Sequence record: MT446405.1 | Source: Escherichia virus TH32 | Length of the DNA: 64,000 nucleotides | Strand: one strand, 5' to 3' | Position numbers and translations under genes: made by a program | Notes under the pieces: model-generated | What the model was told of the DNA's origin: nothing | What the model saw: only the letters and a program-made list of their open reading frames with translations | Databases searched by the model: none | Part shown: positions 5,470-54,385 of the stretch, one piece after another | How the letters are laid out: the number at the start of each line of letters is the position of its first letter | How positions within the stretch are numbered: the first letter of the stretch is position 1

Positions 5470-6051
5470 TCACACCGGAATATCGCCTAAATCGTTATTA
5501 ACAGCTCTTGCAACAGCAGGCGTGTCAATTGAAATTGCGTTTCTGTGAAGGATTACCAAATCAAAAGAAGGAAACGATTCAAACTGAGACATGTCGTCAT
5601 AGAACTTTTCATTGTTGTTCATGTCGACTCTATATACTGAAGCTTGATGCCTTTTAAACCAATCCCTCAAATTAGCCTTGTGGGTTATGAATCTTGCTAA
5701 ATAAGTCAAAACGTCATTAGCCGTAGGCTTTTCTGGATTGCCAGGAACTTCTGGAAATAAGCCGCTAATTTGAAAACGTGTTGCGTATATCTGATCTTCA
5801 ATATCTTTAAATTTGCCATTAACGAATTGAGATTCATCATTGACAAATTCATTCTTTCTCATTGACCAACCGAATGGGACTGAGAATAAAAGGTTAAACC
5901 AAATCTGATCACCAGTCGGAATGCCCTGTTGAGTCGGTTGGTATTTTTTCTGGACCGGAACAGCAGAAAGGTCTGCACGACTATACGCCGCCAGACCTTC
6001 TTCAATTCGCGTTGCCAGCATGTCAATCAGGTCGACATCTGTCATATACAC
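5470..6051 (-). CDS. Hypothetical virion protein
   Basis: 193-aa ORF, 1-nt spacing to neighbours. Confidence 0.4.
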   Translation of the reverse strand: MYMTDVDLIDMLATRIEEGLAAYSRADLSAVPVQKKYQPTQQGIPTGDQIWFNLLFSVPFGWSMRKNEFVNDESQFVNGKFKDIEDQIYATRFQISGLFPEVPGNPEKPTANDVLTYLARFITHKANLRDWFKRHQASVYRVDMNNNEKFYDDMSQFESFPSFDLVILHRNAISIDTPAVARAVNNDLGDIPV

Positions 6052-6439: not shown

Positions 6440-6900
6440 CAGAATACCCCACCAATTTTACGGAATCCTTCACGCTCTGGAAGGCCGCCGAATGACAAGC
6501 CGCCAACGGCCAGTGCTTGAAGAAGCGCCCACAGCGCCATGCCATATGGAGTGCTTGATAGCCAGTATTCCCAGCCATCACTCGCAGGCGGCGCGACTTT
6601 GTTCACTGTGATGTCACCAATTGTTGCTCCAGTCACGAAGCCGCCTTGTTCAACTCCGTCACCAGAAGACACAGACACTTGTTGGTCTGCGGCTATGCAT
6701 AAAAGATGAGCCGTCATATATTCCAATGCCAGCTCCAATTTACTGCCATTTAAAACACGACAAGGACTGTCTTGTGATTCAATAAATTCACATGCCATGT
6801 CATAGAATACTTGAAGTGTTGTGTCAGGGAATTTAACCTGATCAGCAAACTGTGGAAATTTAATTCTGAACTTTTCGTAATCTAATGACATGGCATTCAC
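6436..6900 (-). CDS. Hypothetical virion protein
   Basis: 154-aa ORF, 4-nt overlap with upstream gene. Confidence 0.4.
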   Translation of the reverse strand: MNAMSLDYEKFRIKFPQFADQVKFPDTTLQVFYDMACEFIESQDSPCRVLNGSKLELALEYMTAHLLCIAADQQVSVSSGDGVEQGGFVTGATIGDITVNKVAPPASDGWEYWLSSTPYGMALWALLQALAVGGLSFGGLPEREGFRKIGGVFW

Positions 6901-10681: not shown

Positions 10682-10779
10682 CCACCCTCAAATAAGTATT
10701 GTGTATTATATCTAATGAAAAAAACTTAGGCAAACAATAATTATGGTTTGAATATGTATAACAACCGATATAGCCGCGC

Positions 10780-11060
10780 CTTTATTAGTGTGATACGGAT
10801 GATACGGATAAAATGAGGCGTATTTTTATCCGTATCGGTGTATAAGCCGCGCTATCACTGGTGTGCTACGGATGATACGGATGATACGGATACTTTTCAT
10901 ATATAAGAGTTTATAAAAAAATAAAATTAAATTAGATATATAATTTTAAATTAATTTATTTGAATTCCTATATAGTACTGCGGCAACGCGTATCATCCGT
11001 ATCATCCGTAAGATTCTTTTGAAAACAACAACTTACTTGATACGGATGATACGTCATTAT
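10780..11060. repeat. Iteron cluster: 9-bp tandem GATACGGAT-type repeats in both orientations flanking an ~85-bp AT-rich spacer
   Basis: tgatacggatgatacggata (10791), ctacggatgatacggatgatacggatac (10866), AT-rich 10895-10975, cgtatcatccgtatcatccgtaagatt (10989), gatacggatgatacg (11039). Same motif family recurs at 26.97-27.3 kb. Confidence 0.7.
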
Positions 11061-11096
11061 ACGTATAAAACTCGCAGCAATCCTTTGCCGATGAAT

Positions 11097-15434: not shown

Positions 15435-15563
15435 TCTATATTATAAATATTCATGTGTTTGTAAGCAAATGATATGTATAGTAATCATAAATAGTTCATA
15501 AAATATTTTGCTTTTGTATCATTTTGAGTTATATTTTAGTTAACCAAACGAAAGGAGATTGAA

Positions 15564-15980
15564 ATGAGCACAACAATTGTATTTGTCGTCCTTCATCAAG
15601 GCGAAGTGGTAAACGTATGCGAATATGAAGAGCTGGCAAAAGCCACTGCTGCGCGATATGAAGGTGCCACAGTTGACCCTTGGATTTTGGATGCGCGAAA
15701 CGTGTTGCAGGCGACCATGGATGAGTGGCTTTTAGGTCGCAAGGTGTATCCGGTTGAAAACATCGAATCCATTCAAGGTGAAACAGTATACTTTGAAGAT
15801 GAATGCGTTCGCGGCATTGGTAAATTTATTGGATTGTGCCCATCTTCATCCAAAAATAAATTTTATCGTATTCAAGTTGAAGAGAACGATATGTTCGACA
15901 AAGTAACGCGCTCGATTGTTCCTGGCGGCGGCACTCCAATCTTTATGGCAGAATCAGACATCAAGGGGATCATCAAATGA
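15564..15980 (+). CDS. Hypothetical protein
   Basis: 138-aa plus-strand ORF with AAAGGAG RBS, in the gap between portal and terminase genes. Confidence 0.45.
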   Translation: MSTTIVFVVLHQGEVVNVCEYEELAKATAARYEGATVDPWILDARNVLQATMDEWLLGRKVYPVENIESIQGETVYFEDECVRGIGKFIGLCPSSSKNKFYRIQVEENDMFDKVTRSIVPGGGTPIFMAESDIKGIIK

Positions 15981-24215: not shown

Positions 24216-24283
24216 AATAATCTCCTAGTTGGTCGGGCGGGTAGCGACCTATTCGCTACCTCATCCCCTCTCGATATAAAACA

Positions 24284-24320
24284 TTATAGTCTTAGTGTAC
24301 GAAGAAGTAAAGCACTTTTT
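24284..24320 (-). promoter_or_regulatory. Conserved promoter of paralog 1 (CTTTACTTCTTCGTACACT ... TATAAT)
   Basis: Minus-sense GTGCTTTACTTCTTCGTACACTAAGACTATAAT followed by the ATATCGAG leader; the same element precedes the other two paralogs. Confidence 0.5.
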
Positions 24321-24323
24321 TCG

Positions 24324-24747: not shown

Positions 24748-24790
24748 AAGTGCTTTACTTTTTTCTACACTATATTATAATGTACTCATA
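24748..24790 (+). promoter_or_regulatory. Conserved promoter of paralog 3 (divergent from the paralog 2 promoter)
   Basis: GTGCTTTACTTTTTTCTACACTatatTATAAT then gtactcATATCGGGACGGG. Confidence 0.5.
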
Positions 24791-24849
24791 TCGGGACGGG
24801 ATGAGTTAACGAATAGGTCGTTAACGCCTCTCCCAACTAGGAGTTTAAA

Positions 24850-26758: not shown

Positions 26759-26969
26759 AGTGCAAATTAATAGTGTGAATTATACAATGGATGGACATTA
26801 TATTCAAGTGCAGATTGATGTTCATTATGGCTATAAACGTACACAAATCACAGTGCTGAATGGATAACGGACCGTGGTGCGTGGTGTACTGTTTGATACG
26901 TATAAAAGAAATCCATCCCTTTTGCCGCTTGTTATGCAAATCAATGACTTAGCCGCTGCTGGCTGGTCG

Positions 26970-27300
26970 AAGCGTATCATGACGTATCATCCGTATTGCC
27001 GCAAGTCTTTGTTTTTACTTATATCTTACGGATAATACGTTAAATATATAAATTAACATAAGTATGAGGATGTAGAAAAAAATTAATTTAAATGATTTTA
27101 AAATGGAGTTAATTAATTTTTCAAATTATATATATAACGATGCCCAGTTTTATCCGTATCATCCGTAAGATTAATGTACAAGCCAGGCGCGGCAAGGGCT
27201 GTACACTGATACGGATAAAAAACCATGACGTATCATGACGTAAGGGTGTACCAATTTGGAAAGGATGAATCCAGGAACGGCGCGGCCTGTAGCCATGATA
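26970..27300. repeat. Second iteron/AT-rich region, homologous to 10780..11060
   Basis: cgtatcatgacgtatcatccgta (26975), AT-rich 27040-27140, ttatccgtatcatccgtaagatt (27149; near-identical to 10989-11015), gatacggataaaaa (27208), catgacgtatcatgacgta (27226). Confidence 0.7.
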
Positions 27301-30331: not shown

Positions 30332-30693
30332 AACTCACCCTCTTTAAATATGAAGCCGCTGATTATGGATTGGTAGTAAGTTACGCCTTGCAACTCTACC
30401 GCCTTGCAGCGATGAGCTTGGCCCTTGTATTCTATCCACCAAACCTCCAGGTCAGGCAAATTGTCGCGACGTGTCAGCCATCCATGAAACAACTCGTATG
30501 TCTCACCGATTTTGAACGGCTTAAACACGCCGTTATAAGATTCATTCAACGCTACGCAGACGACATCATGGCTGTCCATCCAAACGCAGTCATGAAATAA
30601 TCCGCTTCTGCCAAACCTTTCGTCGTAACTCATAATCAATTCTCCTTTGCTTGATGAATTAAGTATAATACAGACAGATAAAAAGGCAAGCAC
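30328..30693 (-). CDS. Hypothetical protein
   Basis: 121-aa ORF with AAGGAG RBS directly downstream of a terminator-promoter unit. Confidence 0.45.
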   Translation of the reverse strand: MLAFLSVCIILNSSSKGELIMSYDERFGRSGLFHDCVWMDSHDVVCVALNESYNGVFKPFKIGETYELFHGWLTRRDNLPDLEVWWIEYKGQAHRCKAVELQGVTYYQSIISGFIFKEGEL

Positions 30694-30703
30694 TTAGCTC
30701 ACC
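30677..30703 (-). terminator. Intrinsic terminator (stem with G-U pairs) followed by a promoter -10
   Basis: RNA sense GGUGAGC-UAAGU-GCUUGCC + UUUUU; next to TATTATACT -10; near-identical copy at 31939..31965. Confidence 0.5.
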
Positions 30704-30711
30704 TTTTTGAA

Positions 30712-30972
30712 TTAAATGTGATCGGCTTCTTCGTGTAGACCGACTGACCTTAACTTACGCCGCAAGTAAGCTTTCTTTTCGCACTCGCGCCCGGCTGGAG
30801 TGATGCGGTACTTTAATGTGTTCTCTCTATTCTTGCGTCGGTTGTTCTCGTCGAGTAGCTCTACCAGTGCCTTTGCGTCGTCGAGTGTTAACACCACGGG
30901 CCGCGACCCATTAACGGCCTGTCGAAGCTTCCGCGCGGCAAGGGCCAGTGGCGTCATCGGACCCTTATTCAA
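30712..30972 (-). CDS. Hypothetical basic protein
   Basis: 86-aa ORF. Confidence 0.4.
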   Translation of the reverse strand: MNKGPMTPLALAARKLRQAVNGSRPVVLTLDDAKALVELLDENNRRKNRENTLKYRITPAGRECEKKAYLRRKLRSVGLHEEADHI

Positions 30973-31594: not shown

Positions 31595-31890
31595 GATTCA
31601 CTAGCCTCGAAGCTCCAGCCATCCAGACCGACTTCGCCGCAACAGCGCACCTTTGCCCATCCAGTCATGAGCCATTCGCGGTGCATCTCGAAATACGTTG
31701 GCCTTTCTGAATAACAATGAACAAGGCCGTTATTGTCAATGGCAACGTAACGCGTCCAAGGCGCAACTGGTACAACTACGTCGGGGTGGCCATCTGGCCA
31801 AGGCTTGATGTGTACAGCTGTGTTCAAGTCTACGTTTAACACGCTTCCTAACCGCTCGTCTTGTTCCTTGTCGATGCCTAAGTAAATCAT
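31573..31890 (-). CDS. Hypothetical protein
   Basis: 105-aa ORF with GTGAGGTGA RBS downstream of the second terminator-promoter unit. Confidence 0.45.
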   Translation of the reverse strand: MIYLGIDKEQDERLGSVLNVDLNTAVHIKPWPDGHPDVVVPVAPWTRYVAIDNNGLVHCYSERPTYFEMHREWLMTGWAKVRCCGEVGLDGWSFEASESCVEVQL

Positions 31891-31938
31891 AATTCACCTC
31901 ACTTGTTCGTCTTGATGAAAAGAGTATAAGTATTGATA

Positions 31939-31965
31939 AAAGAAAAGGCAAGCATTTAGCTCACC
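31939..31965 (-). terminator. Intrinsic terminator (second copy of the GGUGAGC/GCUUGCC unit)
   Basis: RNA sense GGUGAGC-UAAAU-GCUUGCC + UUUUCUUUU, followed by TTATACT. Confidence 0.5.
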
Positions 31966-31975
31966 TTTTTGATAT

Positions 31976-32308
31976 TCATTTTACATAGTGGAGTAGGTCA
32001 ATCTCTATCTCGTGCCTTGTCCTTGTTATCTTTGTATCACCCGTCCGGTGGGAGAATTGATAGAAGAAAGAGTCTTTGTGAGCACCTCGTTCAAACGTCA
32101 TGCTGGCAATTCTGCACCCGCATATTGCATCAAGCTTTGCTCCGTTAGACAAAAGGTTGAATGTCAATACAGTGTTATCCATCCTTGCGTTTTGTTTGAT
32201 GCAAGACTTTAAGAATGCATAAGAGTCAGCAAATAATGCGTGCCTTTTACAAATCTCTTTCACCTTCTCACGCTCATGCGCGGCGAGTATCTGATCACGG
32301 GTCATCAC
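31976..32308 (-). CDS. Hypothetical protein
   Basis: 110-aa ORF. Confidence 0.4.
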   Translation of the reverse strand: MMTRDQILAAHEREKVKEICKRHALFADSYAFLKSCIKQNARMDNTVLTFNLLSNGAKLDAICGCRIASMTFERGAHKDSFFYQFSHRTGDTKITRTRHEIEIDLLHYVK

Positions 32309-40847: not shown

Positions 40848-41001
40848 TGTTGACGTAAATTTACGAAAAATAAAACTGAAAATCAGTTTAATTAAAGTGG
40901 CATTGCCGCCATAGTTTTTAGTTGCTACTGGCGGCGACTGAAGGCATAATTAAGTTATCCCAAACGGGGGAATATAAAATAAACTAATTTATTTAAGGAC
41001 T

Positions 41002-41981: not shown

Positions 41982-42977
41982 ATGAACATGAAACAACCTG
42001 TAATGATTATCGGCGGCGGACTGGCAGGACTTATCACCGCTTGCCACTTCCCAAACTCCATTGTGTACGAAGCAGGGGAACGAGCGCCACAGCACAAGGC
42101 GCTACTACGCTTTCGCGGCGAAGAAGTAAGCCGTATTACCGGAATCCCTTTTAAGGCCGTGACAGTTGACAAGGCTGTGTATTTTCGCGGCAACTACTAC
42201 CACGACCATTGCCCAATCAACCTTGCCAATATGTATTCCATGAAGGTCACCAATCAGTTTGGCAGCCGTTCAATCATGAAGCTTAAAACTGCAACGCGTT
42301 ATATTGCGCCTGATGACTTTTATGATCAACTTGTCGATAAGCTTGGCGACCGTATATTCTTCAATACTCCGGTCGACACCCTCTGCGGCTATAGCGAGAC
42401 GCCAATCATCAATACATCGCCGCTGCCCGTCATGATGAAGCTTGCTGGTATTGATCAAAAGCTCGACTTCTCGTTTGATAAGGCAAATATACGCGTTTAT
42501 CGTTTTAAGATTAAGCGCAAGTGTGAACTGTATCAAACAATTTACTTCCCTGACTATTCTGTAAGGACTTACCGCGCATCAATTACTGGTGACACGCTGA
42601 TTATCGAAACAATTCCATTGGTAAGCGTCAGCGCGGCAGCAGTTGAAGCCGCTGGCGGCATTACCCGTTATCGCGACATGAAGTTGCGTGCAGAAGTGGA
42701 CGAAGTTCTGACCGCTTTTGGTCTTTCATGGAATGACATCTCTTTGGAAGAAGTTGAAAAGGTTGACCAGAAGTATGGCAAGATTGTCGACATTCCTAAA
42801 GACTTGCGCCACGCCTTACTGCTCCAGCTGACCATGGATTTGAACGTATTTAGTGTCGGTCGCTTTGCTACTTGGCGAAACATTTTGCTTGATGACGTTG
42901 CTCATGACCTTGTTGAAGTTGAAAAACTCATCAAAGCAAATAACTATCAAAAATTTGCTTATATTGCTAATAAATAA
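41982..42977 (+). CDS. FAD/NAD(P)-binding oxidoreductase
   Basis: N-terminal Rossmann dinucleotide-binding motif VMIIGGGLAGLITACHF ... YEAGER. Confidence 0.5.
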   Translation: MNMKQPVMIIGGGLAGLITACHFPNSIVYEAGERAPQHKALLRFRGEEVSRITGIPFKAVTVDKAVYFRGNYYHDHCPINLANMYSMKVTNQFGSRSIMKLKTATRYIAPDDFYDQLVDKLGDRIFFNTPVDTLCGYSETPIINTSPLPVMMKLAGIDQKLDFSFDKANIRVYRFKIKRKCELYQTIYFPDYSVRTYRASITGDTLIIETIPLVSVSAAAVEAAGGITRYRDMKLRAEVDEVLTAFGLSWNDISLEEVEKVDQKYGKIVDIPKDLRHALLLQLTMDLNVFSVGRFATWRNILLDDVAHDLVEVEKLIKANNYQKFAYIANK

Positions 42978-43042
42978 TTTGCTTTCTGCTTCAATGGGCG
43001 TATACTTTAATCATTGAAGCAGAACTCATAGAGGAAACGAAA

Positions 43043-43489
43043 ATGAAACGAATCACTGGAATCGCGCTTGCCGCGACTGCTATTCTCGGAACCATGTATA
43101 TGGAAGCGACTGAAGCCGCTGTCCGTACTTCCGATTCAATCGCCGTGTATGATTGCGAAGCGATGGACGGTAAAACCGCAGCAACCACTGGCGCAACTAT
43201 CACAGCTTACATCGGCGTGAACGAGCAAGAAGGTTTGAACATTCAGATTCAAGGATTCACAGGGAAAGGTGCCAACCGTACTCCGTGGATGCAACGTTTC
43301 ACTTTCGTTCAGCCTCGTTCAACTGGCGGCTTCATCAACCTCATTGGTGAAAACCGTTCTGGTGCAGAAATCTTTACATCAATGAGTTCTAATGATGAAC
43401 CAAAGAAAAGTTTTCAGTTGCTTTATAACGCACAATTCGTTTATCATTGCACCTTCTCTGGTGATCAGCAACTAGTGAATTACCGTTAA
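43043..43489 (+). CDS. Predicted secreted protein
   Basis: N-terminal signal-like segment MKRITGIALAATAILGTMYMEA; GAGGAAACGAAA RBS. Confidence 0.4.
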   Translation: MKRITGIALAATAILGTMYMEATEAAVRTSDSIAVYDCEAMDGKTAATTGATITAYIGVNEQEGLNIQIQGFTGKGANRTPWMQRFTFVQPRSTGGFINLIGENRSGAEIFTSMSSNDEPKKSFQLLYNAQFVYHCTFSGDQQLVNYR

Positions 43490-43502
43490 TAGGATAATTA
43501 AA

Positions 43503-44333
43503 ATGAAAGTTGAATTAATTCGATACACCCAAAATGCACTTGACCTTTTGCTGGAAACAAAGAACACGCGCATGACTGGCAAGCCCGTCTCTGAGATGAC
43601 AGAATCAGAGAAGCAAGAGCACTGGCGCTACATGCTTGACACCATCAAGTCACCTTTCGACTTTGTTGACTATATCTTTGACATCACTGATGTATCAAAG
43701 AATATGACTCATCAAATGGTGCGCACACGAACAGGTGCATATCAAGAACGAACAAGCCGCGCTCAGGAGTCTTCTGCCTTTGATGCGATTCGTCCGAAGG
43801 CATTTTCACACCAAAATCCAGAGTTGATTGATCACTGTGAAGCATTTGGAACTGATGAAGAGCAACAATCTTTACTTCAAAAGCAATACTTAGCAGAGAA
43901 GTGGGATGACGCAATGGCGACTATCGATGCTTTGTATCAAGAACTTCGCGCGGCTGGCGCAGAGATTCAAGATGCACGTGCCGTGTTGCCTTCTAATATG
44001 CAAACGCATATCATGGCAAAGTTCAACTTGCGCACCCTGCAGCAAATGGCCTCTAACCGCTTGTGCACGCGCACTCAAGGCGAGTATCAAGAAGTATTCC
44101 GTGCAATGGTTGCGGAAGTCCTTAAGGTGCACCCGTGGGCTAATCCTTTACTACAGCCGCAGTGCATCGGTATGGGTAAGTGCGCATTTCCTCGTCACGG
44201 TAAGGCCCATTGCCCTTGGTATCGTGATTGGATGGATACCACGGCACAGCAAGAAGAGTTGCGCATCCAGTTTTGGAGTGCAATGCCAATCACCAACAAT
44301 CCAGTTGCTAAAGATGGAGTATCAAAAGGATGA
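43503..44333 (+). CDS. ThyX-like (flavin-dependent thymidylate synthase family) candidate
   Basis: RTR-x8-S segment (VRTRTGAYQERTSRAQESS) resembling the ThyX RHR-x7-S signature and a downstream LRTLQQMASNRLCTRTQGEYQ block; divergent, so tentative. Confidence 0.4.
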   Translation: MKVELIRYTQNALDLLLETKNTRMTGKPVSEMTESEKQEHWRYMLDTIKSPFDFVDYIFDITDVSKNMTHQMVRTRTGAYQERTSRAQESSAFDAIRPKAFSHQNPELIDHCEAFGTDEEQQSLLQKQYLAEKWDDAMATIDALYQELRAAGAEIQDARAVLPSNMQTHIMAKFNLRTLQQMASNRLCTRTQGEYQEVFRAMVAEVLKVHPWANPLLQPQCIGMGKCAFPRHGKAHCPWYRDWMDTTAQQEELRIQFWSAMPITNNPVAKDGVSKG

Positions 44334-45202
44334 GCATTAAAAACAGCGAAATCTTAAACGTATTCGACCTTGACGGAACGCTGTTTGATGACCGTTGGCG
44401 CTTAGACCGCATCAAGGTGGCAGGTCCGTTGTCAGACTATGATGACTATCACAGCGGTATTGGTTATGATCAGTTCTATCCTCACATTGCATCAGCAGTA
44501 GAGGCTGCATCTCTTCGCGGTGAGGCGGTTGAATATTGGACTGCAAGACCAGAAAAATACAGACAAGTGACTTTTGAGCGTCTGGACAATGTTTTCCCTT
44601 TTGATGAATTTACAATCAAGATGAGAGACTCTGGCGACAAACGTCCATCAACTATTATGAAATCTGCATGGCTATCGCACGCTTTGCGGCACGGCGATTA
44701 TCGAATCATCAATGTATTCGACGACCGACAAGACGTACTCGCGCGGATGCAAGATGAAGCATTGTATTATAACTCCGTTGCTCAAAATAAAATCGCTTTT
44801 ACATTTAATCTTTGCAAAGCAGGTGAAGTGGTGCAACAATTAGCAATTGATCCAAGCGCAACAGGGCAAGAAGATACTAAGGCTGTGGAAGTTGAACAAT
44901 CTCCGGCAACTGCCGCCGATATTCTTGATGCGATGGCCGCGACCTTCCGTGAGCGCAACGCCGTTTATGGCGATAACGCTGTGATGGTGGGCCAGGTGAT
45001 GCAAGTTCTCTTCCCTAATGGCGTCACGTTGAAAACGCCGGAAGACTACCACATGTGGCACCTCTTCGAGCTTAAGATTGTCAAGCTTACACGCTTCGCA
45101 ATCAGCGGCCTGAAGCACGAAGACTCTATACACGATGATGGTGTTTACAGCGCCATGTGTGAACGTCTTGTGAACACCCATAATATTAATTTCAATAAAT
45201 AG
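44330..45202 (+). CDS. HAD-superfamily phosphatase-domain protein with C-terminal domain of unknown function
   Basis: HAD motif I FDLDGTLFDD at the N-terminus, FDDRQD-type motif later; C-terminal ~140 aa unassigned. Confidence 0.5.
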   Translation: MSIKNSEILNVFDLDGTLFDDRWRLDRIKVAGPLSDYDDYHSGIGYDQFYPHIASAVEAASLRGEAVEYWTARPEKYRQVTFERLDNVFPFDEFTIKMRDSGDKRPSTIMKSAWLSHALRHGDYRIINVFDDRQDVLARMQDEALYYNSVAQNKIAFTFNLCKAGEVVQQLAIDPSATGQEDTKAVEVEQSPATAADILDAMAATFRERNAVYGDNAVMVGQVMQVLFPNGVTLKTPEDYHMWHLFELKIVKLTRFAISGLKHEDSIHDDGVYSAMCERLVNTHNINFNK

Positions 45203-45267
45203 TTTACTTGTGCGTTTCGATGAGTTATATTTATCTCATCGAAACGAAGTCCAAAAAGGATAAATAA

Positions 45268-45951
45268 ATGAAAAAGGTAATTGTTGTAACAGGTGCCAAT
45301 TCCGGTCTTGGTAAATCTATTTTTGACACCCTTGGCGCTTACGGTCACGAAGTCGTCGGAATCGATTTAGAGAACGGCTATGACATTCGTAACGCAAAAC
45401 AGATGAAAGAACTTCTTAGCGGTTACGACGTAGAAGGCTTGATCAACTGTGCTGGCGTAAACTCTAACAACTGGTTTGAAGACGTCGATTATGAAGAGTT
45501 TAATCGCGTTATGCATACTAACGCATTCTCTTTCGTCAACACAACACAGGCTGCGTTGAAAAGTCTTGTCGATAATAAAGGCTTTGTTATTAACATTGTC
45601 TCTAACGCCGCGCATATTCCTATGACGTCCAGTTTGTGCTATAATGCATCCAAGGCCGCTGCGCTTATGATCACTAAGCAGATGGCGCACGAGCTTACGC
45701 CTAAATACGGTATTACGGTATTCTCTATTAGTCCGAACAAGTTGCGCGGCACTGGCATGTCTAAACAGATTGAAGATGCTGTTTGTGCAACTCGCGGGTG
45801 GACCCCTGAGTATGCCGCTGAATACCAGAAAAAGGCATTGATGAACGGATTGGAGACTGAGCCGCAAGTAATTGCTGACTTCATTCGCCATATCTTAATT
45901 ACGGGCGCATGGCGCTTTATGTCTGGTACTGATATTCCATTTGGGAAATAA
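45268..45951 (+). CDS. Short-chain dehydrogenase/reductase (SDR)
   Basis: TGANSGLGK cofactor-binding motif and YNASK catalytic motif. Confidence 0.65.
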   Translation: MKKVIVVTGANSGLGKSIFDTLGAYGHEVVGIDLENGYDIRNAKQMKELLSGYDVEGLINCAGVNSNNWFEDVDYEEFNRVMHTNAFSFVNTTQAALKSLVDNKGFVINIVSNAAHIPMTSSLCYNASKAAALMITKQMAHELTPKYGITVFSISPNKLRGTGMSKQIEDAVCATRGWTPEYAAEYQKKALMNGLETEPQVIADFIRHILITGAWRFMSGTDIPFGK

Positions 45952-45954
45952 ATC

Positions 45955-46170
45955 ATGAACAAAGCCTGGTTAGCGGTGATTGGTCTGGTCCTTCTGGTTG
46001 TATTGGGATACACTATCAAATTTGAAGTTCCAAATCCTGCTGAGCCTGACAAAAAGATTGTCGTTGAAGTACCAGGCGCGAAAGGGGAATTACCAAAACC
46101 TAAATTCGAAGTGGTAACGCCTGCGCCTGAAAAACCGCAGGACTCTGATAACACCGTAATCAATAAGTGA
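45955..46170 (+). CDS. Small membrane protein
   Basis: 71 aa; N-terminal TM AWLAVIGLVLLVVLGYTI. Confidence 0.35.
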   Translation: MNKAWLAVIGLVLLVVLGYTIKFEVPNPAEPDKKIVVEVPGAKGELPKPKFEVVTPAPEKPQDSDNTVINK

Positions 46171-46303
46171 GATTATGGAAGAAGAATTTAACATCCCTGG
46201 TCTGGATGAAGAAAAAGACTATGCTGCTGAAGTAGTCAGCAAAGAAGAAACTCATGAAGCCGACAACGTTTGCGGCGATGCTTGTAAAATCTAAGGAAAC
46301 AAA

Positions 46304-46855
46304 ATGCCACATTTTAAAATTGAACAAATCGCCCTGTCAATTCCAGATGCTCAGCGCGCACAGGATTTCTTGGCTAAAATCGGCCTGACAGAATGGTTCC
46401 ATGATCATGTTGTTGCTACTGGTCGCGTATTTGAAGCTGATGACTTTAAAGGTCGTCGCGACGATTGCACCAATGAAGCTGACTTGCGCTTCAACTATCA
46501 GGCTGGCAACGGTACTGATGGCAGAGCTGGTAAGCCTCTTGAGCTTGAAATCCTTGACTACACAATGGGCTGCAACTGGATTAACGAAAACATCGAATAT
46601 ATCGATGCGCATGACAATCAGGTCAGCCACCTTGGCATGCACGTGACTGCCGCTGAACTTGCTGAATGGCGTAAGTTCTTTAAAGAAGAAGGTATTCAGG
46701 TTGCACAGGAAGTTGTAACTGACTCTCATACCAACCCGAACATTGCTGGTCAACGTCGTTACAACTATGTGATCTTTGATACGCGTGAAATCATCGGCGT
46801 TGATTTGAAGTTTATCGTGCGCTTGAATCAAGACGGTACTCCGTACACCGTATAA
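46304..46855 (+). CDS. Hypothetical protein (possible VOC/glyoxalase-like fold)
   Basis: 183 aa with His/Glu-containing blocks (WFHDH, LELEILDY, HLGMHV) loosely resembling metal-binding VOC proteins. Confidence 0.3.
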   Translation: MPHFKIEQIALSIPDAQRAQDFLAKIGLTEWFHDHVVATGRVFEADDFKGRRDDCTNEADLRFNYQAGNGTDGRAGKPLELEILDYTMGCNWINENIEYIDAHDNQVSHLGMHVTAAELAEWRKFFKEEGIQVAQEVVTDSHTNPNIAGQRRYNYVIFDTREIIGVDLKFIVRLNQDGTPYTV

Positions 46856-46871
46856 CGAATCGTGAATCTGT

Positions 46872-46897
46872 GGCCGTCCTAATGGGCGGCCTTTTTG
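46872..46897 (+). terminator. Intrinsic terminator
   Basis: ggccgtcc-taat-gggcggcc hairpin followed by tttttg. Confidence 0.6.
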
Positions 46898-46909
46898 TAG
46901 GAGGCTAAT

Positions 46910-47452
46910 GTGTTATTTCTCCCTTATGACTTCGAAACAACCGGATTGACCGTGCACCCGAAAGCGCCGCTTGGGATGCAGCCGCGCCCTATTGAATTTG
47001 CAGGTCTGTTGACAGACGGCAAAGAGATTCTTGAAACGTTTGAATTCATAATTAATCCTGAAATCGTGATTGAAGAAATTATCACAAAGATTACCGGATT
47101 AACAAATGAAGATATTGAGTGCAATCCACCGTTCATCAATTTCGTCCCGCAGCTAAAAGAAATATTCAAGAAGACTGATGCAACTATCGCGCATAACCAT
47201 GCGTTCGATAAAAACATTCTTGATTATGCACTACAGCGCGAAGGACTTACGCTTGATGATGTTAATTTTCCAGAAATAAACATATGTACAGTTGAGCAAA
47301 CCTTGCCTATTTTTGGCCGAAGAGTTAAGCTTCAAGAGCTGTATGAATTATATTTCGGAAAATATGAACAGAAGCACCGTGCATTAGACGACGTAATATT
47401 ACTGCACAAAGTCTGCCAACAAATTGGTGTATATGACATCTGGAGTAAATAA
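46910..47452 (+). CDS. DnaQ-like 3'-5' exonuclease (DEDDh proofreading subunit)
   Basis: Exo I YDFETTGL, Exo II HNHAFDKNIL, Exo III HRALDDV; GTG start after AGGAGG RBS; stop overlaps the DnaE start. Confidence 0.7.
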   Translation: MLFLPYDFETTGLTVHPKAPLGMQPRPIEFAGLLTDGKEILETFEFIINPEIVIEEIITKITGLTNEDIECNPPFINFVPQLKEIFKKTDATIAHNHAFDKNILDYALQREGLTLDDVNFPEINICTVEQTLPIFGRRVKLQELYELYFGKYEQKHRALDDVILLHKVCQQIGVYDIWSK

Positions 47453-50349
47453 TGTTTCCACAATTGAGAGTTCGCAGCGGTTACACGTTCAAAGAAGTTT
47501 ATGGACGGCACCCTGAAATTATAGCACGGCTCAAAGAGTTGGGCTGCGAAGTCGCGGCATTAGTTGATAACAACACATGGGGTCATGTCCGCTGGGAAAA
47601 GGAATGCCAGAAAAATTATATTAAGCCTATGTTTGGGATGGAGATTCCAATCATCGACCCTGATGCGGACCCGAAAAAGGGATTCAAACCGAAGGCTTGG
47701 ATTCTTGCGCTTGATTTAAAATCTTTCTACAACGCAACCACGCTTGCAACCAAAAAGGGCGGCTTAACCCGTGCAGAGTTCGGTGCGCTTGATGGCGTAG
47801 TTAAATTCTGTGGCGGTGCCGTGGAGCTGTTGCGGCCAGAGGACTATGACTATATAGACGTCAACCCATCATCGTTCCTTTTGGCAAAGCGCCAGGTATT
47901 GGCTCATCGCGCAGGAGGAAGGCCGCTGGTTTTAACCGGATACAATCACATGCCTTCACCTGAGCACGTTGACTTTGCTTATGCTTGGGAAGTGCGCGAC
48001 ACGGTTAAGCCGCACTGCATCGTAAGCGATGAAGAGTTGCGGAGTCAACTAAAAGGTATTCTTACAGAAGACGAGCTTGCACAGGCAACTTCAAATGCCA
48101 TTGACATCGCAAATGGCATAGTCGGGCTTGACCTTAAACTGCGCAAGGCTCCGATTATTCACCTTGCAGGCGACATGGTAAAACTTGCTCGTGAGGGGAT
48201 GGAGTACCGTCTAAAAGCAGGTCACATCAAAGAATGGACTCAGGAATATGAGGACCGCTTCAACGAAGAAATTCATCAGATTCAGCTGAAAGATTTCGAC
48301 TCATACTTTCTGGTGGTAGCGGACCTTGTACGATTCGCAAAAACAAAAATGCTCGTCGGTCCTGCGCGCGGCTCATCGGCTGGTTCACTGGTTTGTTATT
48401 GCTTAGGCATCACGGAAGTGGACCCAATCCCGTATAAGCTGCTGTTTGCCCGATTCATCGACGTAAGCCGCGCCGACCTTCCTGACATCGACATCGACTT
48501 TGAAGATACCAAACGCTATATGGTGTTTGATTATCTTAAAGAGAAATACGGCGAAATGAACGTTGCAAAGCTTGGCAACATCAACACGCTTAAGGCCAAC
48601 TCAGTAATGGCTCAAGTTGGTAAGAAGTTCAACATTGGATACCACGAAACAGCCAACATTAAAAACGCACTGCTTGAATACTCATCCGGTGACGCCCGTT
48701 ATGGTCACGGCCTGGAGGATACCTTTGCAACAACGACCACGGGTCAAGAGTTCGTGGCTAAATATCCTGATGCCGCGCGTTGCATGGGTGACCTTGAGAT
48801 TCACCCGTCCCACACAGGTGTTCACGCAGCGGGAATCATTGTGTGTAATGACCCAATCTCTGATTACTGTACTGTAACTGCAGAAGGGATTGCGCAAATC
48901 GATAAGCCTGACAGCGAATACCTCAACCTTTTGAAGCTTGATGCGCTGGGCCTTCGTACTCTCGGCATTATTTCTGATACAGGCGTTATTGATGCTGAAA
49001 CGCTCTACGGAATCAAGCTTGATGATCAAAGCGTCCTTGACATTCTTAACGAAAACAAGATGTCAGGCATCTTCCAGTTTGAAGGTGATGCTGTACGTTC
49101 AGTAACAAACTTTGTGCACGTCGACAACTTTAACAAAATCGACAACCTGACGGCTTTGGGTCGACCTGGCCCGTTGTCATCCGGTATGGCCCAGAAATAC
49201 ATTGAACGCGCGGCAGGGCGTGCGCCGATTGAATACGACGTGCCGCAGCTTGAGCCGTACTTAAAAGAGACTTACGGCGTGTTTCTTTACCAAGAGCAAA
49301 TCATGGCCGTGGTTAAAGAGATTGGTTCATTTGACTGGGCGAAAACGTCAGCTGTACGTAAGGCGATGTCAGGCCGTAAGGGTGAGGAATACTTTAACAA
49401 GCTTGGCGAGGACTTTGTTGCAGGCGCAATCAATAACGGCGTACCGGAAGCGGATGCAAGAAAGCTTTGGCAAGCGATGGCTACGTTCGGGTCATGGGGC
49501 TTTAACAAGTCACACTCCGTGTCATACGCGGTCGTGACCTACTGGACCTTGTGGCTTAAGCGACACTACCCGTTGGAATTTGCCGCTGCCTGCTTACGCG
49601 CTGCTAAGGACGAAGACCAGACGATTGCGATATTACGTGAACTTGCAAAGGAAGGCGTGGATTATGTGCCAATCGACCCTGATCACTCTTCGATGAACTG
49701 GACCATCGCGAACGGAAAGCTAATCGGCGGCATCATGAACGCGAAAGGGTACGGCATGGTGAAGGCGATGAAGTACATCGAAGCGCGTGAAGCCGGAACC
49801 TTAACGCAGAAACAAAAGGACGCATTGGCCAATGCTGAAGTAAAATACGGCGACCTTACAGAGATGCACACAAAGTTCGGCTGGGCGTATAATGACCCGT
49901 ATCTGATTGGGGTGACGTCCGGCGCTTCAATACGCCAGATGAAGGAAGTCGGTGATGACGAGCGCGCAATAGTAATCGGCAAGTTGACAAAGAAGGTGCT
50001 TGCGGACGAGAACGAAGCAACACGCATCCGTAAACGACTTGAGCGCGGCATCTATACAAAGCACGGCAAGCTTAAAAAGGGTCTTCAAGCTGATGGCCGC
50101 TACGCAGAGTTTGACCAGTACGGGAACAAGCTTGAGACTCAGTTCATCGACCTTATGTGCAAAGACGACTCGACCGACTCGCCAATGCGCTTCAGGATTC
50201 GTCCAGAGAAGTTCCAGAAGTACGGGAAGTACATCGCTGAAAACGTCGGGAACGGCGCATTCTTCCTGATGAAAGGTCGTAAGCTTGAAGGCATTGACAT
50301 GTTCATCGTTGACGTGATCAAACAGGTGTATCCAGATGGCAACAAATAA
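47452..50349 (+). CDS. dnaE: DNA polymerase III alpha subunit (DnaE-type replicative polymerase)
   Basis: 965 aa; N-terminal PHP-like region; GPARGSSAGSLVCYCLGITEVDP matches the conserved DnaE motif. Confidence 0.8.
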   Translation: MFPQLRVRSGYTFKEVYGRHPEIIARLKELGCEVAALVDNNTWGHVRWEKECQKNYIKPMFGMEIPIIDPDADPKKGFKPKAWILALDLKSFYNATTLATKKGGLTRAEFGALDGVVKFCGGAVELLRPEDYDYIDVNPSSFLLAKRQVLAHRAGGRPLVLTGYNHMPSPEHVDFAYAWEVRDTVKPHCIVSDEELRSQLKGILTEDELAQATSNAIDIANGIVGLDLKLRKAPIIHLAGDMVKLAREGMEYRLKAGHIKEWTQEYEDRFNEEIHQIQLKDFDSYFLVVADLVRFAKTKMLVGPARGSSAGSLVCYCLGITEVDPIPYKLLFARFIDVSRADLPDIDIDFEDTKRYMVFDYLKEKYGEMNVAKLGNINTLKANSVMAQVGKKFNIGYHETANIKNALLEYSSGDARYGHGLEDTFATTTTGQEFVAKYPDAARCMGDLEIHPSHTGVHAAGIIVCNDPISDYCTVTAEGIAQIDKPDSEYLNLLKLDALGLRTLGIISDTGVIDAETLYGIKLDDQSVLDILNENKMSGIFQFEGDAVRSVTNFVHVDNFNKIDNLTALGRPGPLSSGMAQKYIERAAGRAPIEYDVPQLEPYLKETYGVFLYQEQIMAVVKEIGSFDWAKTSAVRKAMSGRKGEEYFNKLGEDFVAGAINNGVPEADARKLWQAMATFGSWGFNKSHSVSYAVVTYWTLWLKRHYPLEFAAACLRAAKDEDQTIAILRELAKEGVDYVPIDPDHSSMNWTIANGKLIGGIMNAKGYGMVKAMKYIEAREAGTLTQKQKDALANAEVKYGDLTEMHTKFGWAYNDPYLIGVTSGASIRQMKEVGDDERAIVIGKLTKKVLADENEATRIRKRLERGIYTKHGKLKKGLQADGRYAEFDQYGNKLETQFIDLMCKDDSTDSPMRFRIRPEKFQKYGKYIAENVGNGAFFLMKGRKLEGIDMFIVDVIKQVYPDGNK

Positions 50350-50758
50350 CCGTGAGCAGAAATACATATTCGTGCCTTTGAAGAAGCATTCAGAATCGGT
50401 ATTGAAGCTTCAACGAATCGAGTCGATGACTGGTGATGGCGTGCCGGACGTAATCGGCACCAACCGGAAAGGGCGCGGCTTTTGGCTTGAAATGAAGTTC
50501 TTTGAATCGTGGCCTGCAAGGGCCACCACTGCACCTTTCAGAAATGCATTTGAGAAAGGCCAATGCAGCTTCCTTTCTTCGTGGAATGATTGGCGATACC
50601 CATCATTCGTTTTGCTTAAGGTTGATTCTGAGAAGATGTTTTATTTAGTCCACCCTTCTATTGAATTAAAGCGTTATAATACTGCAGACGTTCAACGTGA
50701 GATAATCGTGAAGGGAACTATTCATCACATCATCAAGTATTTAGAGGAATTGTCATGA
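50336..50758 (+). CDS. VRR-NUC domain nuclease
   Basis: TGDGVPDVIGTNRKGRGFWLEMKF fits the G-x-PD ... E-x-K VRR-NUC signature; immediately upstream of an SNF2 helicase, a common pairing. Confidence 0.5.
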   Translation: MATNNREQKYIFVPLKKHSESVLKLQRIESMTGDGVPDVIGTNRKGRGFWLEMKFFESWPARATTAPFRNAFEKGQCSFLSSWNDWRYPSFVLLKVDSEKMFYLVHPSIELKRYNTADVQREIIVKGTIHHIIKYLEELS

Positions 50759-52278
50759 AAACACAAGGAATGCGCCACCAATTATTGGCGCTTGATAAAG
50801 CAGGCCGCAGAAAATACTTTGCTTATTTTATGGAACAGGGTCTTGGTAAAACCTGGACTGCTTTGGCAGAGTTTGAAAAACACTTCGCCGCTGGCGCATT
50901 TGATGCCATGGTTGTCATCGCTCCTAACGGTGTCCACTCGAACTGGATTCGTCGTGAAGCACCAGAACACCTTTCCATTAAATGGATTGGTCATTACTGG
51001 CGCGGAAATGACAAGATGAAAACTAAAAAGGGTAAAGCCATTTGGGAGAAGATGTTTGCTGATCACTATCCTGAAGGTGAAGTGCCTGCGCGCATCTTCT
51101 CATTCAACATCGATACTGTCAACACACCAGTCGGTTATCAACACATCGAGTCTGTCCTGAAGAAGTACCGCTGTTTGATGATCATTGACGAATCGACGCG
51201 TATCAAAAATAACACAGCCAAACGCTCCATCAAGGTTGTAGAATTGGGACGGCTGGCAAAGGCCCGTCGCATACTTTCCGGCACGCCGCTGCCGCGCTCG
51301 CCTGCTGATATTTACATGCAGTATCACTTCCTTGAAGCTGGCTTGCTCGGCACCAAATCGTTCCGTGCATTCAACTCTGAATTCACAGTGCTGCTTGAAG
51401 CGCACGACCCAGAGATGCAGGCCATTCTCAAGAAAATCGGCGGCAACGGTTATGGCATTCCGCAAGTGCCGCGCAAAGACCAGTTTGGCCGACCGATGTA
51501 CAAGAACCTTGACAAGCTTATCCGGCTGATGGAACCGCACTATTTTCGTGCAACAAAAGCAGAATACTTGCCTGACCTTCCAGAGAAGGTGTACAAGTTT
51601 ATTGACTTCGAGTTGTCGCCTAAGCAGCGCGATGTATACGATGAACTCAAGAATGAGTACAACTATTTGATGGAATACAAGGGCGAAGAAGAAAACGTCA
51701 AGTTTGAGATGATCGCGTCGCGCACCAAGATGAAGCAGGTTACATCCGGCTTTGTCAAGGTGTATGATGAGATGGTCTACATGGAAGACAACCCACGCTT
51801 CACGGCCTTTAAGGATTATGTGGAAGGGGTGTTGGAAGACGACCCAGAGCGCAAATTCATCGTTTGGGCCATCTTTAAGGAAGAGATGAACCAGATTAAG
51901 GAATGGCTTGAGTCTGAAGGCGTGGTCACTGGTGTATACAACGGTGAAACATCAAAAGAGCAGCGCGAGTTCTTGATTGATGACTTCCAGAAAAACACAG
52001 TCGCGAATGGTGGAACACAGGTATTGGTTTGCCACGCTGCAGCGGCAGGCATCGGCATCACACTTACCGCTGCTGACTTGGCAATCTATTATTCTTGCAA
52101 CTATGACAATGAGTTGCGCAAGCAATCCGAAGACCGAAATCACCGCATCGGCACCAAATCAAGCGTGTTGTATGTTGATTTTATTGGGGTTGATACCATC
52201 GACGAAGAAATTCAGCGTTCATTGAGTATGAAGTCTATGCTTGCTGATCACATCCTCGACGGCAAAAAGATGAATTAA
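50755..52278 (+). CDS. SNF2-family helicase/ATPase
   Basis: Motif I EQGLGKTWTA, motif II IIDESTRIKN, C-terminal helicase domain. Confidence 0.7.
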   Translation: MKTQGMRHQLLALDKAGRRKYFAYFMEQGLGKTWTALAEFEKHFAAGAFDAMVVIAPNGVHSNWIRREAPEHLSIKWIGHYWRGNDKMKTKKGKAIWEKMFADHYPEGEVPARIFSFNIDTVNTPVGYQHIESVLKKYRCLMIIDESTRIKNNTAKRSIKVVELGRLAKARRILSGTPLPRSPADIYMQYHFLEAGLLGTKSFRAFNSEFTVLLEAHDPEMQAILKKIGGNGYGIPQVPRKDQFGRPMYKNLDKLIRLMEPHYFRATKAEYLPDLPEKVYKFIDFELSPKQRDVYDELKNEYNYLMEYKGEEENVKFEMIASRTKMKQVTSGFVKVYDEMVYMEDNPRFTAFKDYVEGVLEDDPERKFIVWAIFKEEMNQIKEWLESEGVVTGVYNGETSKEQREFLIDDFQKNTVANGGTQVLVCHAAAAGIGITLTAADLAIYYSCNYDNELRKQSEDRNHRIGTKSSVLYVDFIGVDTIDEEIQRSLSMKSMLADHILDGKKMN

Positions 52279-52352
52279 TATCAAAAATAATTTGACTTGT
52301 CACGGAAGATGAGTCATAATTACTTCATCGAAACGAAACAGAGGAATACAAA

Positions 52353-52616
52353 ATGGTACGCATCCTTGAACGTTACAAAAATGAAGCTACTGGCGCAATC
52401 GCTTTCAAACGTCTTTTGGTCAAAGAAATTGACGGAATGTTTCGCATTGTTAAAGAGTTTGATTATGGCAACGGTGCTGGGGTGAATACCGTTATCATGC
52501 CTGGCATCAAGGCGTATAAAACCTTAAAAGGCGCTGAGAAGGCTTTGGCGGCTTGGAAACCTGAACGTTATCAAATGACCCGTGTTGAAGGGCTAATGCA
52601 AGAAGGTAAAATTTAA
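52353..52616 (+). CDS. Hypothetical protein
   Basis: 87-aa ORF with GAGGAATA RBS; upstream GATGAG/CTCATC hairpin element. Confidence 0.4.
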   Translation: MVRILERYKNEATGAIAFKRLLVKEIDGMFRIVKEFDYGNGAGVNTVIMPGIKAYKTLKGAEKALAAWKPERYQMTRVEGLMQEGKI

Positions 52617-52864
52617 TGAGTAAAAAAGTTCTGTTAATTGGGCCGCGTAACTCCGGCAAGACTACCAGTGCAAATAAAATTGCCGAAGTCATGGGACTTG
52701 CAGAAATATTTGAGCTTGACGGATTCAAAGTGCCAAACGGTTATAAGTTGCGCGATGACGTTGATGCCCTGTTTATAGCATCAAAACTTCCTCGCGGAAT
52801 CCGTCGAGAACATTTTGACATAGTCATTGAAATTAATAAGGGGTACATAAATGTCAACTATTAA
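52616..52864 (+). CDS. Small P-loop NTPase-like protein
   Basis: Walker A-like LIGPRNSGKTT. Confidence 0.4.
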   Translation: MSKKVLLIGPRNSGKTTSANKIAEVMGLAEIFELDGFKVPNGYKLRDDVDALFIASKLPRGIRREHFDIVIEINKGYINVNY

Positions 52865-54328: not shown

Positions 54329-54346
54329 TCGACAATCAAATCAACA

Positions 54347-54374
54347 AGGCTGCCGATTGGCGGCCTTTTATTTA
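54347..54374 (+). terminator. Intrinsic terminator
   Basis: aaggctgccg-att-ggcggcctt hairpin followed by ttatttat. Confidence 0.55.
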
Positions 54375-54385
54375 TCTGGTGCATC

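Follow-up and report, generated by a model that had tools for sequence, protein, structure and literature searches.

What are the short, hairpin-bearing leaders that recur in front of plus-strand genes of Escherichia virus TH32? The DNA considered here is a 64,000-nucleotide stretch of sequence record MT446405.1 (hereafter the window), and the leaders in question precede the start codons at 43043 (site 1), 45268 (site 2) and 52353 (site 3). A preliminary description of the window had listed promoter stem-loops, RNase processing sites and translational control elements as possible explanations. All three elements are real, but their coordinates had been placed 3-14 nt off and their description was incomplete. 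With a probability of about 0.8, they are composite regulatory cassettes of the promoter-early stem-loop (PeSL) type, each lying between two phage genes. This cassette type is already known in T4-like phages; here it is found in a different E. coli phage group. The first of the earlier suggestions was essentially right: the elements look like sigma70-type promoters with a built-in stem-loop. The −35 and −10 hexamers had been overlooked, and with them two consequences, namely that at sites 1 and 2 the hairpin loop holds the −10 element, and that transcription there would start within the 3′ arm.

The window covers most of the genome of a Wifcevirus, a 68-kb E. coli myophage; sigma70-type signals are therefore relevant. 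The 12 kb around the elements are 93-96% identical to the Wifcevirus Escherichia phages WFC, WFH, FEC19, vB_Eco4M-7 and Bas98-101. On the plus strand, 39.3-57.4 kb form a replication and nucleotide-metabolism module; its products include a Dda-like helicase, ThyX, a PNKP-type phosphatase, an SDR/FabG-like protein, a DEDDh exonuclease, DNA polymerase III alpha and an SNF2 helicase. Non-coding DNA makes up 9% of the window (~5.8 kb).

The three sites share one intergenic layout. The gaps from stop codon (TAA or TAG) to ATG measure 65, 65 and 74 nt at sites 1, 2 and 3; the stop codon lies in A+T-rich sequence at the 5′ end, and a ribosome-binding site (GAGG, AAGGA and GAGGA, respectively) and the ATG lie at the 3′ end. 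All three gaps contain a sigma70-like promoter with a 17-bp spacer. At site 1 (42975..43045, plus strand), the stop codon TAA (42975-42977) is followed by −35 TTTGCT (42978-42983) and −10 TATACT (43001-43006), with GAGG at 43030-43033. The site 2 cassette (45200..45270, plus strand) precedes the SDR/FabG-like gene and has TAG at 45200-45202, −35 TTTACT at 45203-45208, −10 TATATT at 45226-45231 and AAGGA at 45256-45260. The site 3 cassette (52276..52355, plus strand), in front of an 87-aa open reading frame (ORF), consists of TAA (52276-52278), an A+T-rich stretch (52279-52291), −35 TTGACT (52292-52297), −10 CATAAT (52315-52320) and GAGGA (52341-52345); its hexamers agree with the consensus at 10 of 12 positions. 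With 12.9 and 11.9 bits, sites 3 and 2 are among the top non-coding matches in the position-weight scan of the window, and the consensus scan finds both as well. A reading of TTTGCTT as a T4 MotA box was set aside, as the spacing fits sigma70. The three gaps are nearly invariant in 7-11 Wifceviruses whose flanking genes diverge by ~10%; the site 1 cassette is identical in seven of them, and its −35 context, TTGCTTTCTGCT, recurs in Pantoea phage Kyle.

Sites 2 and 3 are related to each other: from −35 to +11, 34 of 46 positions are the same (counted by hand). At site 2, GATGAG (45219-45224) is followed after 10 nt by CTCATCGAAACGAA (45235-45248), which leaves 19 nt to the ATG. The preliminary description had put this element at 45222-45253, ~20 nt from the start codon; element and gap are borne out, while the coordinates were shifted and the repeat is longer. 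At site 3, GATGAG (52308-52313), 11 nt and TCATCGAAACGAA (52325-52337) leave 15 nt to the ATG, so that here, too, the element exists, but not at the 52296-52330 assigned to it. The exact 13-mer TCATCGAAACGAA occurs in the window only at these two sites; with up to two mismatches it is not enriched there (5 found, 2.65 expected). It spans positions −2 to +11 of the predicted transcript, and its sequence and position suggest that it is the transcription start (the A of CAT) together with the initial transcribed leader. The leader motif CATCGAAACGAA lies at 45237-45248 and 52326-52337 (both plus strand), and spacing, ~7 nt after −10, puts the predicted starts at A45238 and A52327. The predicted start at site 1, A43013 (TCA+1TT), is likewise placed by spacing. 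These assignments are supported by the T7 promoters A1 (CCA+1TCGAGAGGG) and A3 (CACA+1TGAAACGACAG), whose annotated starts are at the equivalent A. Of the 15 copies of AAACGAA in the window, four fall in the 9% that is non-coding, and all four are in the sense strand upstream of plus-strand gene starts. Site 1 also contains GAAACGAA, downstream of its hairpin as previously noted, but out of register: it lies at 43034-43041, between the ribosome-binding site and the ATG and 27 nt past −10, whereas at sites 2 and 3 GAAACGAA begins 9 nt past −10. It is probably unrelated to those copies. AACGAA might also be viewed as a site of sigma-dependent pausing, comparable to the −10-like element of lambda PR′; its last base misfits the −10 consensus.

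Each promoter is interwoven with an inverted repeat. At site 1 the repeat has 13 perfect bp (TTCTGCTTCAATG at 42984-42996, CATTGAAGCAGAA at 43012-43024) and encloses the −10 element in its 15-nt loop; its RNA fold is −19.1 kcal/mol (z = −4.2), and none of 200 shuffles is as stable. The 8-bp hairpin drawn earlier at 42998-43028 is real, but falls short of this repeat (42984-43024). The perfect arms at site 2 are 12 bp long (CGTTTCGATGAG at 45213-45224, CTCATCGAAACG at 45235-45246) and can be extended to 45213-45227 and 45232-45246, with 14 of 15 positions paired and −10 again in the loop (−22.1 kcal/mol, z = −6.0; 0/200 shuffles as stable). As the predicted starts at sites 1 and 2 fall within the 3′ arm, a locally started transcript would lack the 5′ arm and hence the hairpin; only read-through RNA could fold. 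This argues against a hairpin in the 5′ untranslated region (5′-UTR) that controls translation of the locally started mRNA, the predicted leaders of which are near-unstructured (0 and −3.4 kcal/mol).

Site 3 is organised differently. The base before TCATCGAAACGAA is T and not C, hence the GATGA/TCATC pairing envisaged in the preliminary description comprises only 5 bp. On its own, GATGA-N8-16-TCATC is not significant (2 found, 0.72 expected; equalled in 14 of 100 shuffles). The minimum-free-energy fold is another hairpin, in which 52293-52301 pairs with 52308-52316 around the loop ACGGAA, and which begins at base 2 of −35 and ends at base 2 of −10. At −10.0 kcal/mol it is more stable than expected from spacer shuffles (p = 0.002). 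Its register is the same in three genera, with 93% of cells paired (8 sequences, 3 genera); compensatory changes affect five of the nine pairs, none of 500 shuffles reaches the covariation score, and slid registers are all worse. It is this hairpin, not GATGAG...TCATC, that covariation backs. The stem contains two G.U wobble pairs, which suggests that it matters at the RNA level, and the bases that vary among Wifcevirus isolates fall in the loop. From these comparisons, promoter and stem-loop both appear to be under selection, the stem-loop being set by structure rather than by sequence.

Protein-anchored searches for divergent relatives, using the SDR protein and the helicase, gave three informative lineages only. 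In Kylevirus (Pantoea phages Kyle and PA1) and Myosmarvirus (Serratia and Erwinia phages), the orthologous gaps keep −35 (TTGAC or TTGCC), the 17-bp spacing, −10 and the leader part TATCTCATC..AAACGAA, while the spacer sequence changes; for site 2, this means that −35, −10 and part of the leader are kept and the 5′ arm is not. These relatives have short G+C-rich spacer hairpins of their own (Fisher-combined p = 3e-6 for MyoSmar and 7e-4 for Kyle, against spacer shuffles), and such hairpins are general among their promoters, unlike in this genome. Xanthomonas-type relatives have no gap at all before the SDR gene. The relatives' promoter spacers also contain a recurrent 8-mer, CAAGGATG, which supplies the AGGA loop and the closing pairs of a hairpin with covarying arms (GCTCA/TGAGC, ACTCA/TGAGT, GGCCA/TGGCC). 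It is found in Kyle (L003) at 6576-6598, in MyoSmar (L004) at 9305-9325, and in PA1 (L129) at ~5695-5715 and, in reverse complement, at ~1715-1748. To judge by sequence, this motif may have left a remnant at sites 2 and 3 in the form of GATGAGT just 5′ of −10. With its GGA, the loop resembles CsrA/RsmA binding sites, and binding of this protein is conceivable as a lead; among the Wifcevirus sites only the site 3 loop still has GGA, and there it differs from isolate to isolate.

How might such a cassette work? Host RNA polymerase with sigma70 would bind the −35 and −10 hexamers and start at the A of CAT, 7 nt past −10. At sites 2 and 3 the mRNA would begin with AUCGAAACGAA, a short, purine-rich and unstructured leader of 26-31 nt that ends in the ribosome-binding site. 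The inverted repeat seems to be packed where sigma70 does not read, in the spacer and, at sites 1 and 2, also in the initial transcribed region; it would hence be missing from locally started RNA and fold only in transcripts that enter from the upstream gene. Such read-through RNA should exist, because a terminator scan finds no terminator between genes over 41982-46855. In it the hairpin would most likely serve as an attenuator, a terminator or a 3′-end hairpin that protects the 3′ end of the upstream message. Terminator activity has been shown experimentally for the stem-loop of one PeSL of the T4-like phage RB49 (PMC2839356, PMC4122927). The conserved cassettes may also supply homology for swapping the genes that they precede.

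This relatively tidy scheme has several points to its disadvantage. The weakest link is attenuator strength, as the Wifcevirus stems lack G-runs and U-tracts: they are A/U-rich, without the G-run/C-run pairing of the RB49 and phi1 stems, and their strength as terminators may be low or nil. The intrinsic terminator scan does not call sites 1-3, where no G+C-rich stem is followed directly by a U-tract (3′ flanks CTCATAGAGG, AAGTCCAAAA and TAATTACTTC). Embedded hairpins are not general in this genome, where 17 predicted promoters are no more structured than pseudo-promoters from coding sequence, and spacer hairpins across its promoters give a combined p of 0.27. The −35 element of site 1 is weak (~8.9 bits, calculated by hand). 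Sites 1-3 also lie in a conserved replication module, in place of the hyperplastic ORFan region that houses PeSLs. Finally, we infer the use of sigma70, the start at the A of CAT and the early timing from sequence.

Three other explanations have to be weighed. If the inverted repeats were operators, a dimeric phage or host repressor would bind a −10-centred palindrome, as TrpR-, LexA- or Fur-type proteins do. The geometry is suggestive: the repeats at sites 1, 2 and 3 (at site 3, in the GATGAG...TCATC pairing) are centred within 1 bp of the −10 centre, sites 2 and 3 share GATGAGT 5′ and TCATCGAAACGAA 3′ of −10, and perfect arms of 12-13 bp are far longer than chance. Such centring, however, is also what one would expect of a hairpin fitted around a hexamer that has to be kept unpaired. 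The palindrome of site 1 differs in sequence, so that a second protein would be needed; at site 2 the 5′ arm is unconserved in Kylevirus and Myosmarvirus, although promoter and 3′-arm sequence are conserved; and the 3′-arm sequence serves as a leader in RB49, in T1-like phages and in many others that lack a palindromic partner. The covarying stem of site 3, with G.U pairs and a sequence that varies among genera, fits RNA and not a sequence-specific DNA site. Operators are altogether quite improbable. A search by eye for sites of the host transcription factors Fur, PurR and Cra gave no convincing match.

RNA is also the level at which the hairpins would act if they were RNase III or RNase E sites, or barriers to 3′-exonucleases, that separate messages, with the hexamers secondary. 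Their position, directly behind one gene's stop codon and ahead of the ribosome-binding site that follows, suits this role, as do their stability (−19 and −22 kcal/mol), the read-through RNA expected over 41982-46855, and the G.U pairs and covariation. E. coli RNase III prefers about two helical turns, for which stems of 12-14 bp are short, and across genera it is the hexamers and the 17-bp spacing that are conserved, while hairpins move and change. Processing as the primary function is therefore unlikely; it is nevertheless compatible with the hairpin part of the PeSL-type reading, and the two are not exclusive. Chance resemblance in A+T-rich intergenic DNA is already refuted, even though neither GATGA-N8-16-TCATC nor the 13-mer with up to two mismatches is enriched. 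In ~5.8 kb of non-coding DNA, perfect 12- and 13-bp repeats that enclose short loops would be expected only ~0.01 times (an estimate), the folds reach z-scores of −6.0 and −4.2, the gaps stay unchanged next to genes that differ by ~10% among 7-11 Wifceviruses, and the motif recurs in register in unrelated phages.

The PeSL-type reading gains from the presence of further copies in the genome, so that there is a repeated family, with a copy number far below that of RB49. Two paralogous cassettes lie in the minus-strand early region. The one at 31888..31978 has the hairpin AAAAGGTGAGC-TAAAT-GCTTGCCTTTT (31969-31943) overlapping −35, with −35 TTGCCT at 31951-31946, −10 TATACT at 31928-31923 (12.2 bits), the start region TTCATCAAGACGAAC, a copy TCATCAAGACGAA two mismatches from the 13-mer, and the ATG at 31890. 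The other (30626..30720, minus strand) carries a 27-mer hairpin over −35 (30707-30681), −35 TTGCCT (30689-30684) and −10 TATACT (30667-30662) from the position-weight scan, TTCATCAAGCAAAGGAG and an ATG at 30628. The 27-mer hairpins at 30681-30707 and 31943-31969 differ at one base, and both cassettes have the TTCATCAAG start region. A promoter of the same sub-family that lacks a strong hairpin is found at 15507..15566 (plus strand; −35 TTTGCT 15507-15512, −10 TATATT 15530-15535, ATG 15564); TGAGT stands directly 5′ of −10, and AAACGAA (15546-15552), 10 nt past −10, is in the register of sites 2 and 3. Finally, TTGCTA-17-CATAAT at 40922..40970 (plus strand; hexamers 40922-40927 and 40945-40950) has the leader TAAGTTATCCCAAACGGGG and is preceded by a terminator-like hairpin at 40897-40909.

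Some of these cassettes coincide with gene replacements. In phage Ro157lw, the cassette corresponding to 30626..30720 precedes a different ORF, and homology to the window ends exactly at ATG 30628; a gene replacement between Wifceviruses has its border at this cassette. Seuratvirus Greed has an ORF with 89% identity to the 87-aa ORF after site 3, preceded by an unrelated upstream region, while the T1-like phage haarsle carries −10 and leader of site 3 (39 of 43 positions identical) in front of an unrelated ORF. Going by these sequences, the split occurrence of cassette and ORF has the pattern expected of cassette-mediated module exchange. [quoted passage not shown] Variable gene content was also observed nearby. 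An 82-aa ORF (52613-52864; weak match to an AAA-ATPase N-terminus) between the 87-aa ORF and the DUF7307 gene is absent from the listed sequenced Wifceviruses, whose homology ends at ~52612. After the SDR gene, the interval 45955-46303 contains no small ORF in WFH and Eco4M-7, one in Ro157lw and two in Bas98; part of it, a 133-nt stretch, has no called ORF in the window.

Other regulatory features of the window were noted alongside. Canonical terminators occur at 46872-46909 (GGCCGTCCTAATGGGCGGCC+TTTTT, before the exonuclease/DnaE operon) and at 54346-54385 (AAGGCTGCCGATTGGCGGCCTT+TTATTT); in both cases the next gene starts directly afterwards with no recognisable promoter, so that the downstream operons would depend on read-through. 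The leaders of two divergent genes, at 24216-24323 (minus strand) and 24780-24849 (plus strand), are paralogous (ATCGAGAGGGGATGAG-GTAGCGAATAGGTCGCTAC and ATCGGGACGGGATGAG-TTAACGAATAGGTCGTTAA), and the genes encode weakly related proteins of 96 and 94 aa with 27% identity (E=1e-5). Each leader forms a hairpin; the loop, AATAGG, is common to both, the stems show two compensatory changes, and this could be a shared 5′-UTR regulatory hairpin; the first of these leaders begins like the T7 A1 transcript, AUCGAGAGGG. An iteron-like 15-mer, GATACGGATGATACG, is present in eight copies in both orientations (0.05 expected) at 10792-11053 and 26983-27169, within two large A+T-rich non-coding gaps (10682-11096 and 26940-27170). 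This array may mark a replication origin or bind another protein. Rfam gave no match at gathering score over the whole window, and a tRNA scan of the window was likewise without a match.

For Wifcevirus, an uncharacterised genus that is used in O157 biocontrol and forms part of the BASEL collection, the cassettes provide a predicted transcription map, with hypothetical internal promoters and start sites before the SDR operon, the operon of the 87-aa ORF and a 148-aa ORF. They would extend mobile regulatory cassettes of the PeSL type past the T4-like phages, and the −10 plus leader module shared by T1-like, T4-like and Wifcevirus genomes offers a handle on how regulatory DNA and small accessory genes move from one phage to an unrelated one. 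The predicted promoters and leaders may also be useful as compact, strong parts for phage engineering. The cassettes do not represent a new kind of mechanism, and their place among known systems is best seen by comparison.

Coliphage N4 has promoters whose function involves a DNA hairpin and which are used by its virion RNA polymerase. In N4 it is this phage-encoded enzyme that reads the hairpins, which have stems of 5-7 bp, loops of 3 nt and conserved bases. In contrast, the hexamers in the window are of the sigma70 type and the sequences of the inverted repeats vary, so that the resemblance is one in name only; no RNA polymerase gene is present among 20 proteins scanned from the 39.6-57.2 kb stretch. 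Literature searches for Wifcevirus promoters, for the motif string and for promoter stem-loops of Drexlerviridae found nothing relevant, and those on Wifceviruses yielded neither transcript nor reporter measurements.

The closest relatives in design are the PeSLs of the T4-like phages RB49 and phi1, described by Arbiol et al. 2010 (PMC2839356) and Comeau et al. 2014 (PMC4122927). These are strong sigma70-like promoters joined to a stem-loop, with a stop codon in A+T-rich sequence on the 5′ side and a ribosome-binding site and ATG on the 3′ side; the stem-loop contains G-T pairs and lies mostly between −35 and −10 or over −10. With lacZ fusions, promoter and terminator activity have been demonstrated, and PeSLs have been proposed to take part in the modular shuffling of genes (PMC2839356, PMC4122927). 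A search of PeSL papers for terms that name other phage groups found such cassettes described there only in T4-like phages.

Like PeSLs, sites 1-3 have a sigma70-like −35/N17/−10 promoter and are intergenic, with a stop codon in A+T-rich sequence on one side and a ribosome-binding site plus ATG on the other. They likewise combine the promoter with a stem-loop that has G-T pairs; its arms flank −10 at sites 1 and 2 and bridge −35 to −10 at site 3, and in the minus-strand cassettes the hairpin lies over −35. Gene replacements that break at the cassette are a further likeness, as is the presence of several paralogous copies per genome, although the Wifcevirus copies are far fewer. The leader is shared as well: CAT(C)GAAACGA occurs 5 nt past −10 in both RB49 and Wifcevirus. 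The hyperplastic region of RB49 (NC_005066), read directly, contains −10 + N5 + CAT(C|ACC)GAAACGA, that is CATCGAAACGA in the register of the window; CATAAT-ATCCC-CATCGAAACGAG and TAATAT-ACCCC-CATCGAAACGAA are examples. Among 26 cassettes aligned on −10, 18 fit CAT(C|ACC)RARACGA, and some RB49 cassettes have −10 in the hairpin loop, like sites 1 and 2.

There are also clear differences. The genome is that of a 68-kb Wifcevirus and not of a T4-like phage, and the 3′ arm at sites 1 and 2 runs past the predicted start site. The upstream halves of the RB49/phi1 cassettes (AAAAAGTTGTTGACA plus G-run stems) are not shared: the stems CGTTTCGATGAG, TTCTGCTTCAATG and TGACTTGTC lack the arrangement of G-run, loop and C-run. 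Since other phage pairs have other PeSL stem types (PMC4122927), this arrangement defines the RB49 subtype only. The activity of PeSLs was established by lacZ fusion; that of the Wifcevirus cassettes is predicted from sequence.

The downstream half of site 3 is far more widespread. In a short-query BLAST search, −10 and leader (query CATAATTACTTCATCGAAACGAAACAGAGGAATACAAAATG) recur in several hundred phage records, most of them T1-like Drexlerviridae of Escherichia, Klebsiella, Citrobacter and Salmonella, or ~175-kb T4-like Klebsiella phages. There the module consists of stop codon, A+T-rich stretch, G+C-rich hairpin, −10, N5, CATCGAAACGA, ribosome-binding site and ATG. The T1-like sequences (haarsle, G29-2, SU57) match nearly base for base, as a comparison of CATAATTACTTCATCAAAACGAACAAGAGGAAAACAAAATG in haarsle with CATAATTACTTCATCGAAACGAAACAGAGGAATACAAAATG in the window illustrates, and in both T1-like and T4-like Klebsiella phages the G+C-rich hairpin abuts −10. 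The deposited records label these stretches either 'promoter' (SU57) or 'terminator' (G29-2). Upstream, these phages have AATAGCACTTTTTGTTAAA and a 22-nt gap to −10, unlike the −35 and spacer of Wifcevirus, and the downstream genes are unrelated.

An exact scan of IMG/VR for ATAAT-N5-CATCGAAACGA found at least 120 stretches; their contigs are T1-like, RB49-like and others, and some have the size of PB1-like phages. In 77 of 108 distinct contexts, a ribosome-binding site and start codon follow within 40 nt, mostly with a plausible −35. An earlier IMG/VR scan with AYYTCATCGAAACGAA had returned mostly unrelated contigs. The start motif was also seen in another context, TAACCATTGGTTATTGACTGAAAATAACCATTAGTTAATAAT-N5-CATCGAAACGAAACATCGAC, with a palindrome around −35 and no ribosome-binding site or start codon after it, on IMG/VR contigs of mostly 33-56 kb (L184, L189, L196, L208, L209, L211, L222, L256, L257, L277 and L285). 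Here a different phage or prophage group may have a promoter that drives a non-coding RNA.

The similarity reaches the strong sigma70 early promoters of T7. Both A1 and A3 start at the A of CAT, which is followed by UCGAGAGGG in A1 and UGAAACGACAG in A3; UGAAACGACAG contains GAAACGA, in the close leader variant CATGAAACGA, one base farther from −10. The T7 promoters differ in that no stem-loop is embedded in them; they are found within a long leader region instead of an intergenic gap, and start 8 rather than 7 nt past −10. It is conceivable, at somewhat less than even odds, that selection maintains the leader A+1UCGAAACGA(A/G) as a functional module of early sigma70 promoters in widely differing phages of Gammaproteobacteria: T4-like Krischvirus, T4-like Klebsiella phages, T1-like Drexlerviridae, Wifcevirus, the contigs of PB1-like size, and T7 (A3). 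If so, it might act in fast promoter escape, 5′-end stability or translation, and PeSL-type cassettes would be exchanged between phage families, beyond the published T4-like range. As far as the sequences suggest, this breadth of A+1UCGAAACGA over unrelated phage families is the most interesting residue of the comparison.

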